Counted from the stretch's first letter, positions 6,058 through 7,609 are shown. The stretch: DNA of 19,576 nt from Escherichia coli (GCF_003334765.1 NZ_QOWT01000051.1); one strand, 5' to 3'. The notes: generated by a model not told the origin, from the sequence alone. Numbers and translations: made by a program.

Positions 6058-6092
6058 AAAATTGAGTTGAACGATTGGTTACATCCAGGCAG

Positions 6093-6974
6093 CTAACTCA
6101 CTGAACGTAAAGGCTGTACGAAATGTTCTGACCGTCCGATAACCGTTTGGCTTACTTCCGTACATTCCCTTGTGAGGATGTACAGAATTGTACGATTTAG
6201 GACACCAAAACCACTGTTGTCCCGCCATCTAGGTGATTCCTGAAAGTCATTTGGATAAAAAGCAGTCTTAACGTGGTTTATTTTCCGAATTCCAGGCGGC
6301 CCCCCATAATATCCTGCAGCCAGCTCCATCGCACAATATACCGTCAGTTCTTCCAGCCAGTCAGCCGGATCGCTATGTGCGGCAGCAGTCTGTTTCAGAA
6401 TGCGGATGTCGAACCGGGCATTAAAGATAATTACTGGTCGGTCCCCGATTGCATGACGCAGTTGCCGCGCCACATCTGTCCATGATGGTGCGCCGCAGAG
6501 AGCCTGCTCACTGATACCATGCACAGCGGCGGCCTGCGCCCCGATGGCGACCGTGGGCTTCAGTCTGGTTTCAAATACCACCTGACCGGTCGCATCGGTC
6601 AGGCCGATTTCCAGGGCTTTCGCGGTATTGTCCAGTCCTGTCGTCTCAGTATCCAGAAAGAGCGGTGCCAGACTCAGCCAGTCATATGCCTGCCGTGCCA
6701 TCCGGCCACTGGTGCTGTTAAGTCTGGATAAAACGGAAAATCGCTGGCCAGCCAGAAGTTGTTTACTCGTCAGTGGGCGTTTCTCACGCATCGGAACACA
6801 ATCTGCAATTCGGTATACAGCGAACCTGCCACCATAAGTGTTTTTATACCACTTAACCGGCTCAGCACCGGGGGCTGGCTTCATTCTGAATTCATCGCGC
6901 AGACGTCCTTTCGAGAAACACCTGTCTTCGGCAATCGCCTGCGCACGTCTGGTGACCAGCTCATCATTATTCAT
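6093..6974 (-). CDS. DnaQ-like (DEDD) 3'-5' exonuclease domain protein, IncF backbone (yacC-like)
   Basis: 293-aa ORF with Exo I motif LFLDTETTGLD, Exo II FNARFD and Exo III HSDPAD. The last 60 or so residues lie between the exonuclease domain and the Tn3-family IR and may be read-through rather than native sequence. Confidence 0.7.
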   Translation of the reverse strand: MNNDELVTRRAQAIAEDRCFSKGRLRDEFRMKPAPGAEPVKWYKNTYGGRFAVYRIADCVPMREKRPLTSKQLLAGQRFSVLSRLNSTSGRMARQAYDWLSLAPLFLDTETTGLDNTAKALEIGLTDATGQVVFETRLKPTVAIGAQAAAVHGISEQALCGAPSWTDVARQLRHAIGDRPVIIFNARFDIRILKQTAAAHSDPADWLEELTVYCAMELAAGYYGGPPGIRKINHVKTAFYPNDFQESPRWRDNSGFGVLNRTILYILTRECTEVSQTVIGRSEHFVQPLRSVS

Positions 6975-7019
6975 GGTTCTTGCATCTCCGTCAGACGTTT
7001 TTATATCCGGACACCCCCT

Positions 7020-7301
7020 CTATGGCCACTTCTGTGCAGTATGCAATACTCGCAGGATATACACTTTTCCCCACTGGCTGTCGACCTCATAAACCAGAAC
7101 AAAATGCGGGTGAATAACCAGTTCCCGGGTACCTTCCACACGACCGTTGCGGCCTTTATACGGCTGCCCGGCCAGGCTGCTGGCTGAATAACCAATCCGT
7201 TCGTCCAGTTCAATGGCAGCCATCAGGTTCTGCTCCGCAATATTCTCACGAATGCGCTTCCTGTCCAGGCTGGCCAGCATGGTCCAGAATATCTCCATCA
7301 T
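7020..7301 (-). CDS. Type II toxin, ParE/RelE family
   Basis: 93-aa ORF ending in the ParE-like motif VYILRVLHTAQKWP; 4-nt overlap with the upstream antitoxin gene. Confidence 0.8.
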   Translation of the reverse strand: MMEIFWTMLASLDRKRIRENIAEQNLMAAIELDERIGYSASSLAGQPYKGRNGRVEGTRELVIHPHFVLVYEVDSQWGKVYILRVLHTAQKWP

Positions 7302-7567
7302 TTACCGGCAACCTTCCTGCTCATTTCATCCCGCCATGCTGCAGCAGAGGATTCGACCATGTCATGGGGAAGCACATCACCGTGCTCGAGTTGCTGACGT
7401 CCTGCCGTAACCTGGTCGCGGAACCAGGTATTATGCTGCCGTTCAACGGTCTGGCGCATAAAATCCCGGATTAACTGAGAGCCATTACGGTCCATGCTTT
7501 TTGCAGCGGCCATAAAAGCATCCTTCAGTTCTGCGTCGATTCTTAAACTCATATTAACCTGTGCCAT
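7298..7567 (-). CDS. Type II antitoxin, ribbon-helix-helix (ParD/CopG-like)
   Basis: 89-aa ORF with N-terminal RHH signature (SLRIDAELKDAFMAAAKSMDRNGSQLIRDFMRQ), immediately upstream of and overlapping the ParE-like toxin. Confidence 0.75.
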   Translation of the reverse strand: MAQVNMSLRIDAELKDAFMAAAKSMDRNGSQLIRDFMRQTVERQHNTWFRDQVTAGRQQLEHGDVLPHDMVESSAAAWRDEMSRKVAGK

Positions 7568-7587
7568 TTATCACCTCGTCATTACTA

Positions 7588-7609
7588 CGTATATACACAG
7601 TATATAACG
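7588..7609 (-). promoter_or_regulatory. Palindromic operator/promoter candidate for the ParD/ParE-like operon
   Basis: Perfect inverted repeat TATATAC-aca-GTATATA about 20 bp upstream of the antitoxin start; typical position for autoregulation by an antitoxin. Confidence 0.4.

Follow-up and report, generated by a model that had tools for sequence, protein, structure and literature searches.

Where does the C-terminus of the exonuclease encoded beside an IncFII-type replication origin of Escherichia coli come from? The stretch analysed here (the window) comprises 19,576 nucleotides (GCF_003334765.1, NZ_QOWT01000051.1) and contains an open reading frame (ORF) for a 293-amino-acid (293-aa) protein. 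An earlier description made from the sequence alone (the original prediction) placed a DEDD exonuclease gene and a ParDE-type addiction pair between a Tn3-family inverted repeat (IR) and oriR, and suspected that the end of the exonuclease was foreign read-through sequence created by a rearrangement. That suspicion is borne out. It is very probable, in our judgement, that the genes are yacABC of an IncFII-type replicon and that yacC was truncated at a junction with a non-autonomous Tn3-derived inverted-repeat miniature element (TIME), with loss of the Exo III motif and a product that is most probably dead (Table 1).

Alignment of the ORF by BLASTP to the 282-aa YacC of plasmid pL2-87 gave 219 identical residues out of 225 over residues 1–225 and no alignment afterwards; homology to intact plasmid exonucleases over the full 293 aa was tested for and is absent. 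The same break is seen in the DNA. A megablast search with positions 5900–7700 matched more than 5000 plasmid records in PLSDB, and in all but one of the matches listed the match starts at query base 403 (window position 6302), so that homology to thousands of IncF, IncI and IncK plasmids begins at this point. A three-way alignment with pL2-87 breaks sharply at 6302, being near-identical to the right and unrelated to the left, and the final common codon is codon 224 (GGG, 6303–6305). The native last 57 codons of yacC, Exo III among them, are gone from the window, and a search across the window for the missing 3' part did not find it. What follows codon 224 is a foreign tail of 69 codons that ends at a chance TAG 36 bp from the IR at 6020–6057. 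This distance, and the presence there of a Tn3-family IR (38 bp), are as first described; the statement that the ORF runs about 60 codons beyond its catalytic motifs needs correction, as the third motif is absent and the tail is 69 codons long. On these alignments yacC is cut at the codon 224/225 junction with a 285-bp element, and the tail is read-through into the right IR (IRR) and the interior of this element.

The motifs Exo I (DTETTG at residue 108, with D108 and E110) and Exo II (NARFD at residue 185, with D189) are both found in the window ORF, in keeping with its description as a DEDD exonuclease. That description fails for the remainder of the domain: Exo III was looked for in the 293-aa ORF and not found, and the domain end is missing. 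Intact YacC reads ...GATNRYGTISLACAASQAGLTWEGQAHSAIADARMTAGVV... beyond the break, and its residues 250–255 (HSAIAD) align with HHRALDD of the solved PolC-type exonuclease 2p1j, which identifies them as the H-x4-D of Exo III (H250, D255). The Pfam model RNase_T (PF00929) is covered from position 2 to 109 of 164 by the window ORF (residues 106–202), as against 2 to 163 by intact YacC. The 293-aa product is probably catalytically inactive, because the catalytic histidine, the fourth carboxylate and the last third of the fold have been lost.

RefSeq implies otherwise: as entry WP_001058008.1, the 293-aa protein would be a genuine functional exonuclease variant with an alternative C-terminal domain. 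The ORF is indeed open, PGAP names the chimera an intact '3'-5' exonuclease' in several plasmids (for example at L016 9104–9985, NZ_JBREQS010000002.1), and the ORF is conserved at 100% in a small plasmid lineage. However, Exo III is gone and RNase_T is cut at model position 109 of 164, the tail comes from a transposable element, terminal repeat included, and indels among the other copies of this element leave the reading frame of the tail unconserved. Moreover, one plasmid of the lineage (pEC213_1-OXA-181) has the chimeric gene cut again by TnAs1 and flagged as a pseudogene. We consider a functional variant very unlikely. What happened here is commonplace: an accessory gene of the plasmid was truncated where it joins a mobile element. 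WP_001058008.1 is better treated as the product of a pseudogene, and the practical value of the truncation is limited to annotation.

The repeat at 6020–6057 had been taken as the end of a transposon. It is instead the left IR (IRL) of a complete miniature element that is closed by a second repeat, at 6267–6304, which had gone unseen. The two repeats agree at 29 of 38 positions in inverted orientation; IRL is unique and is matched in none of 200 shuffles. The ends are of the Tn3-family type (GGGG... ...TAAG), and the window IRs agree at 28–29 of 38 positions with the IR sequence of Tn21. All six frames of the element are closed or non-homologous. The hallmarks of TIMEs are 38-bp GGGG...TAAG repeats, a 5-bp duplication, small size and the lack of a transposase gene (PMC4133298, PMC13367494). 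Judged by its sequence, the stretch 6020–6304 is a TIME, and mobilization in trans by a Tn3-family transposase is predicted for it.

By homology to an intergenic region, the interior of the element appears to be res-like. The region in question lies between tnpA and tnpR of an autonomous 8.6-kb Tn3-family transposon (tnpA, tnpR, chrA-padR-arsH...arsC) on the Leclercia plasmid NZ_CP068235.1 (locus L014, 6001–14591). The consensus interior aligned to this res region with a Smith–Waterman score of 181, which was reached by none of 500 shuffles (56 ± 10), and no other of the 418 windows tested over the full transposon scored as high as the res region, the runner-up among unrelated windows reaching 100. 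Repeated half-site motifs of the GTACGAAA / TTTCGGACA type were spotted by eye.

This structure bears on the proposal, also part of the original prediction, that the tail (6058–6300) is what remains, next to its IR, of the 3' end of a Tn3-family tnpA that a deletion fused to yacC. The IR at 6020–6057 is oriented such that a tnpA would end in it, and the tnpA of the related autonomous transposon does end within the corresponding IR (L014 6034). However, a tblastn search with 885 aa of the TnpA of that transposon found no similarity in 6000–6330 at E ≤ 10, and blastn similarity to the transposon ends at the 38-bp IR. The second IR closes the element, the interior matches the res region and not tnpA, and the whole IR-bounded unit belongs to a family of 285–287-bp repeats that recurs in many unrelated contexts, in some cases with 5-bp duplications. 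We therefore give a tnpA remnant scarcely any credence.

The element in the window marks a rearrangement junction and not a simple insertion. Its flanks, TTTTT on the left and CATAA on the right, do not form a 5-bp duplication, and the left one belongs to a frameshifted rlhA-like pseudogene. Direct insertion into yacC, with the 3' end of the gene on the other side and nothing else rearranged, has in its favour that CATAA is AT-rich like the duplicated targets elsewhere, but its probability is next to nil because the flanks show no 5-bp duplication, the window lacks the 3' part of yacC, the left flank is the rlhA-like pseudogene instead of yacC, and a chimeric query made of the 3' part of yacC, the element and the 5' part of yacC finds no record covering at least 80% of it. 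At least five independent plasmids share the rlhA'|TIME|yacC' junction without change (UK, Ghana, Kenya and elsewhere; different hosts), which is therefore no assembly artefact.

A more likely course is insertion followed by flank exchange or adjacent deletion. The element would first have inserted either at CATAA in yacC or at TTTTT in rlhA; both flanks are AT-rich, as are the targets duplicated around other copies, so that either may have been the original site. One flank would then have been exchanged when two copies of the element recombined, homologously or at the res-like site, or a transposase-mediated adjacent deletion would have taken place. Neither a second copy of the element nor a further IR, as in a composite TIME-COMP, was found in the window, even with 12 mismatches allowed.

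The segment to the left of the element (103–6019, roughly 5.9 kb) has chromosomal character and lies between an IS3 end (1–102) and the element; its left boundary is thus the IS3 end and not a copy of the element. Besides the rlhA-like pseudogene it carries a MocR/PdxR-like pyridoxal phosphate-dependent regulator (239–1648, minus strand), cytochrome bd-type oxidase subunits I and II (1817–4227) and a DUF2474 gene. The donor was probably another enterobacterial genus, as the rlhA part is merely 81% identical to E. coli rlhA; a search for an uninterrupted copy of the rlhA-like gene found just the 81%-identical chromosomal rlhA and the same plasmid lineage.

At another locus (L011, about 2480–2501, NZ_CP010214.1) the element abuts yacC at a different position. 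Its left flank, ...GGCCACATCTGTCCATGAT, resembles window positions 6467–6484 with minor differences, and judging from the roughly 25 bp of flank examined this locus seems to keep the 3' part of yacC and not the 5' part; yacC has therefore been struck independently at least twice.

Several points weigh against our reading of the locus as a yacC truncated and inactivated at its junction with a res-bearing TIME. The position of the junction is ambiguous by 3 nucleotides, the CCC at 6302–6304 being common to the IR tip and to native yacC. The inactivity of the product is deduced from motif loss, and the tail holds an H234...D241 pair (H-x6-D) that is non-homologous to Exo III but might stand in for it structurally. 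The res-like assignment draws on 62% identity to an intergenic region with unmapped subsites. The element within an otherwise intact yacC was not found in PLSDB, where no record covers at least 80% of the chimeric query (the apparent three-piece matches are plasmids with different genes downstream of an intact yacC), nor did a reciprocal product of the junction turn up. Finally, the order of the junction events cannot be reconstructed.

The element is not confined to this junction. A blastn search matched thousands of plasmid records, mostly without an annotated feature underneath. Full-length copies (at least 80% coverage) are present in 586 of 5426 complete E. coli genomes (10.8%), and some match to the element occurs in about 2,800 of the 5,426; 4753 of the 4874 matching places in these genomes are on plasmids. 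A scan of the GTDB representatives (one genome per species) with an invariant 24-mer of the element gave a single match, in an Escherichia sp. contig. Extracted copies, nine of which were aligned, are 284–287 bp long and 90–94% identical to the window copy; the plasmids that carry them are of the IncF, IncI, IncK and small colicin types. Their flanks fall into 13 distinct contexts. In three of these the element stands between perfect 5-bp direct repeats (TATAA, TGTTA and ATAAA), against a chance expectation of about 0.013, and the other ten are duplication-free. Two copies (L008 and L020) have a common right flank and different left flanks, from which, together with the ten contexts without duplications, it follows that flank exchange does occur in this family.

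Some copies lie beside colicin or microcin genes (L008 1501–1786; L012, L019 and L021; L013 and L024; L011). On pO111_4 a copy is located between the colicin E2 lysis gene and a C-terminal fragment of colicin E3; further copies are near colicin Ia and near cvaC/colicin B/M, and one adjoins an ATP-binding cassette (ABC) exporter with an HlyD-family adaptor, possibly related to colicin V export. A search of one paper collection for either IR or for a miniature element beside colicin genes found no description of the element; the sole match to an IR was a primer used in the polymerase chain reaction (PCR) for colicin V. This is a reverse primer, CCGTTTTCCAAGCGGACCCC (PMC12456677, Table 1), whose reverse complement matches nucleotides 1–20 of IRL exactly (window 6020–6039), and the colicin V (ColV) assay therefore anchors in a mobile element that is also found in many non-ColV contexts.

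Copies or relics also recur downstream of a toxin–antitoxin (TA) module beside an IncFII-type repA: after yacB in the window, after a relE/parE-family toxin gene in L004 and L020, and after pemK in L025. The last is a 109-bp relic (L025 3001–3109, NZ_AP021999.1) that is 84% identical to element positions 171–279 and lies directly downstream of pemK on a classical IncFII plasmid. Many further E. coli plasmid records have a match over these positions (171–279), among them about 11 of the 40 sampled, of which one (L025) was inspected. With the window, L004 and L020, this puts copies or relics of the TIME where the repA/TA core meets accessory DNA.

Such novelty as the finding has lies in the miniature element alone, which seems to be a new and very common member of the TIME class in E. 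coli plasmids and for which ISfinder or TnCentral may hold a name; its surroundings suggest that it marks the joints of recombined bacteriocin modules. Tentatively, and with more doubt than confidence, we propose that it represents an unnamed, unusually abundant family of res-bearing TIMEs that acts as a recurrent recombination joint between the replication/TA core of IncF, IncI and IncK plasmids and variable cargo. If this is true, the cargo joined would comprise the loci for colicins E2/E3, Ia, B/M and V and, in the window, the rlhA-cyd-like-mocR segment captured from a chromosome. The wider significance is that an apparently unnamed and usually unannotated TIME with a res-like core is common in E. 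coli plasmids, often duplication-free at the boundaries between backbone and accessory modules. Recognizing it should allow a better reconstruction of how IncF, IncI and IncK plasmids gain colicin loci and chromosomal segments, account for some spurious ORF extensions and flag the annealing of a colicin V primer to its terminal repeat.

Table 1. Features of the junction and of its surroundings in the 19,576-nucleotide window.
Feature	Coordinates	Strand	Remarks
TIME, complete, 285 bp, 47% GC	6020–6304	+	Two 38-bp IRs, no transposase gene
IRL, 38 bp, GGGGTCCGCTTGGAAAACGGAAATTTTCCCACGCTAAG	6020–6057	+	2 mismatches to an IR of the autonomous transposon in L014
IRR, 38 bp, GGGGGCCGCCTGGAATTCGGAAAATAAACCACGTTAAG	6267–6304	-	Inside the ORF, codons about 224–237
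Putative res-like core	6091–6204		71/115 identical to the tnpA-tnpR intergenic (res) region of the chrA/ars Tn3-family transposon, reverse orientation
293-aa chimeric ORF	6093–6974	-	Stop TAG 6093–6095; codons 1–224 yacC, codons 225–293 read-through into the element
yacC-derived part of the ORF	6305–6974	-	97% protein identity to intact YacC
rlhA (U32 peptidase)-like pseudogene	4460–6019	-	Frameshifted, N-terminus cut at IRL; 81% identical to E. coli chromosomal rlhA
yacB, ParE/RelE-superfamily toxin, 93 aa	7020–7301	-	Pfam ParE_toxin
yacA, ribbon-helix-helix antitoxin, 89 aa	7298–7567	-	Stop overlaps the yacB start by 4 nucleotides
Imperfect palindrome TACTACGTATATACACAGTA	7583–7602		16 nucleotides upstream of the yacA ATG
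IncFII RepA	8483–9352	-	NCBIfam NF010313, 610 bits

The other two genes of the cluster, yacA and yacB, together with the promoter/upstream region and repA/oriR, are intact and unaffected by the junction. The names yacA, yacB and yacC are established in the plasmid literature (PMC3438092, PMC7354431), and the RefSeq annotation of near-identical plasmids has YacA/YacB for the TA pair and a 3'-5' exonuclease for the third gene. YacB covers the Pfam ParE_toxin model completely (positions 1–89 of 89, E = 5e-15), and its gene is separated from the 293-aa ORF by 45 bp. The YacA product gives weak ribbon-helix-helix (RHH)/RelB signals (E about 0.02–0.05) and RelB_DinJ at E = 2e-5. A full-length toxin with a ParE/RelE signature, preceded by a small overlapping gene for the putative antitoxin, corresponds to the layout of a type II TA module. 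The upstream palindrome contains a perfect one of 8 bp, GTATATAC, and may serve yacA as an autoregulatory operator. The ParDE-type pair with a palindromic operator that had been described thus stands as regards the full-length ParE toxin, the overlapping antitoxin and the palindrome, and is less firm as regards the antitoxin, with its weak signals, and the operator role, which is putative. A scan for consensus promoters and terminators gave counts near the shuffle expectation and was discarded as evidence.

The setting between a Tn3-family IR and oriR was likewise correctly recognized: IncFII RepA is encoded on the far side of the cluster, and a perfect DnaA box (8298–8306) lies 185 bp downstream of repA, at the expected place of oriR. 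Further along, finO is located at 11536–12096, and the transfer region beyond is broken (window 11536–19576). All that is left of it is an internal fragment of TraI (12317–13129, matching about residues 390–545 of TraI), followed by a small methyltransferase-like ORF (13924–14487), a 453-aa ORF without an NCBIfam match (14534–15895) and an IS66-family transposase gene (17013–17990).

Compared with the DnaQ-like DEDDh exonucleases, such as DNA polymerase III epsilon and the PolC domain 2p1j, the window ORF retains Exo I, Exo II and, from the N-terminus, two thirds of the fold in recognizable form; it has neither Exo III nor the final third of the domain. The gene order, the orientation and the position beside IncFII repA/oriR are those of yacABC, with YacC as a putative exo(ribo)nuclease, in IncF, IncI and IncK plasmids (such as pS88, pWR100 and pL2-87), which are about 97–98% identical in nucleotide sequence to window 6302–7700; yacC differs in retaining codons 1–224 of 282 only, without Exo III, and in its 69-codon foreign tail.

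The autonomous transposon on the Leclercia plasmid resembles the element in its terminal IRs, which differ from the window IRL by two and four bases, and in a res region homologous to the element core. It has its own tnpA, tnpR and cargo, whereas the window element has neither tnpA nor tnpR and carries its res-like core inverted relative to the IRL-like end. A near-identical tnpA (≥99% identity) is present in about 500 plasmid records, mainly from Klebsiella, Escherichia and Enterobacter, and we regard this transposon as a candidate helper for the element. At L007 (7001–9688, NZ_OZ392450.1) the parent-like Tn3-family transposon, with an IR identical to the window IRL at 36 of 38 positions, sits in the ref gene of a P1-like phage-plasmid and is truncated there by IS1.

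The element resembles the TIME class in its 38-bp GGGG IRs, its 285-bp size, the lack of a transposase gene, its almost exclusively plasmid-borne location and the 5-bp duplications of some copies. Identity with TIME244, IS101, IMU or MITESen1 (sequences from PMC13367494, Table S2) was considered and rejected: blastn matches are at the level of the IRs and at most 39 nucleotides long, global identity is about 50–57% in either orientation, and their IRs agree with the window IRs at 18–30 of 38 positions. TIME244 likewise has a res-like core (PMC13367494), and MITESen1 is reported to have many duplication-free copies at rearrangement junctions and the same pattern of flanks as the family of the window element. 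TIME1–4 of Pseudomonas (262 bp, about 54% GC) are set apart from the window element (285 bp, 47% GC) by length, GC content and host only. Named TIMEs are reported at frequencies of 0.06–2.3% in Enterobacteriaceae (PMC13367494), as against the 10.8% of complete E. coli genomes that carry a full-length copy of the element described here.

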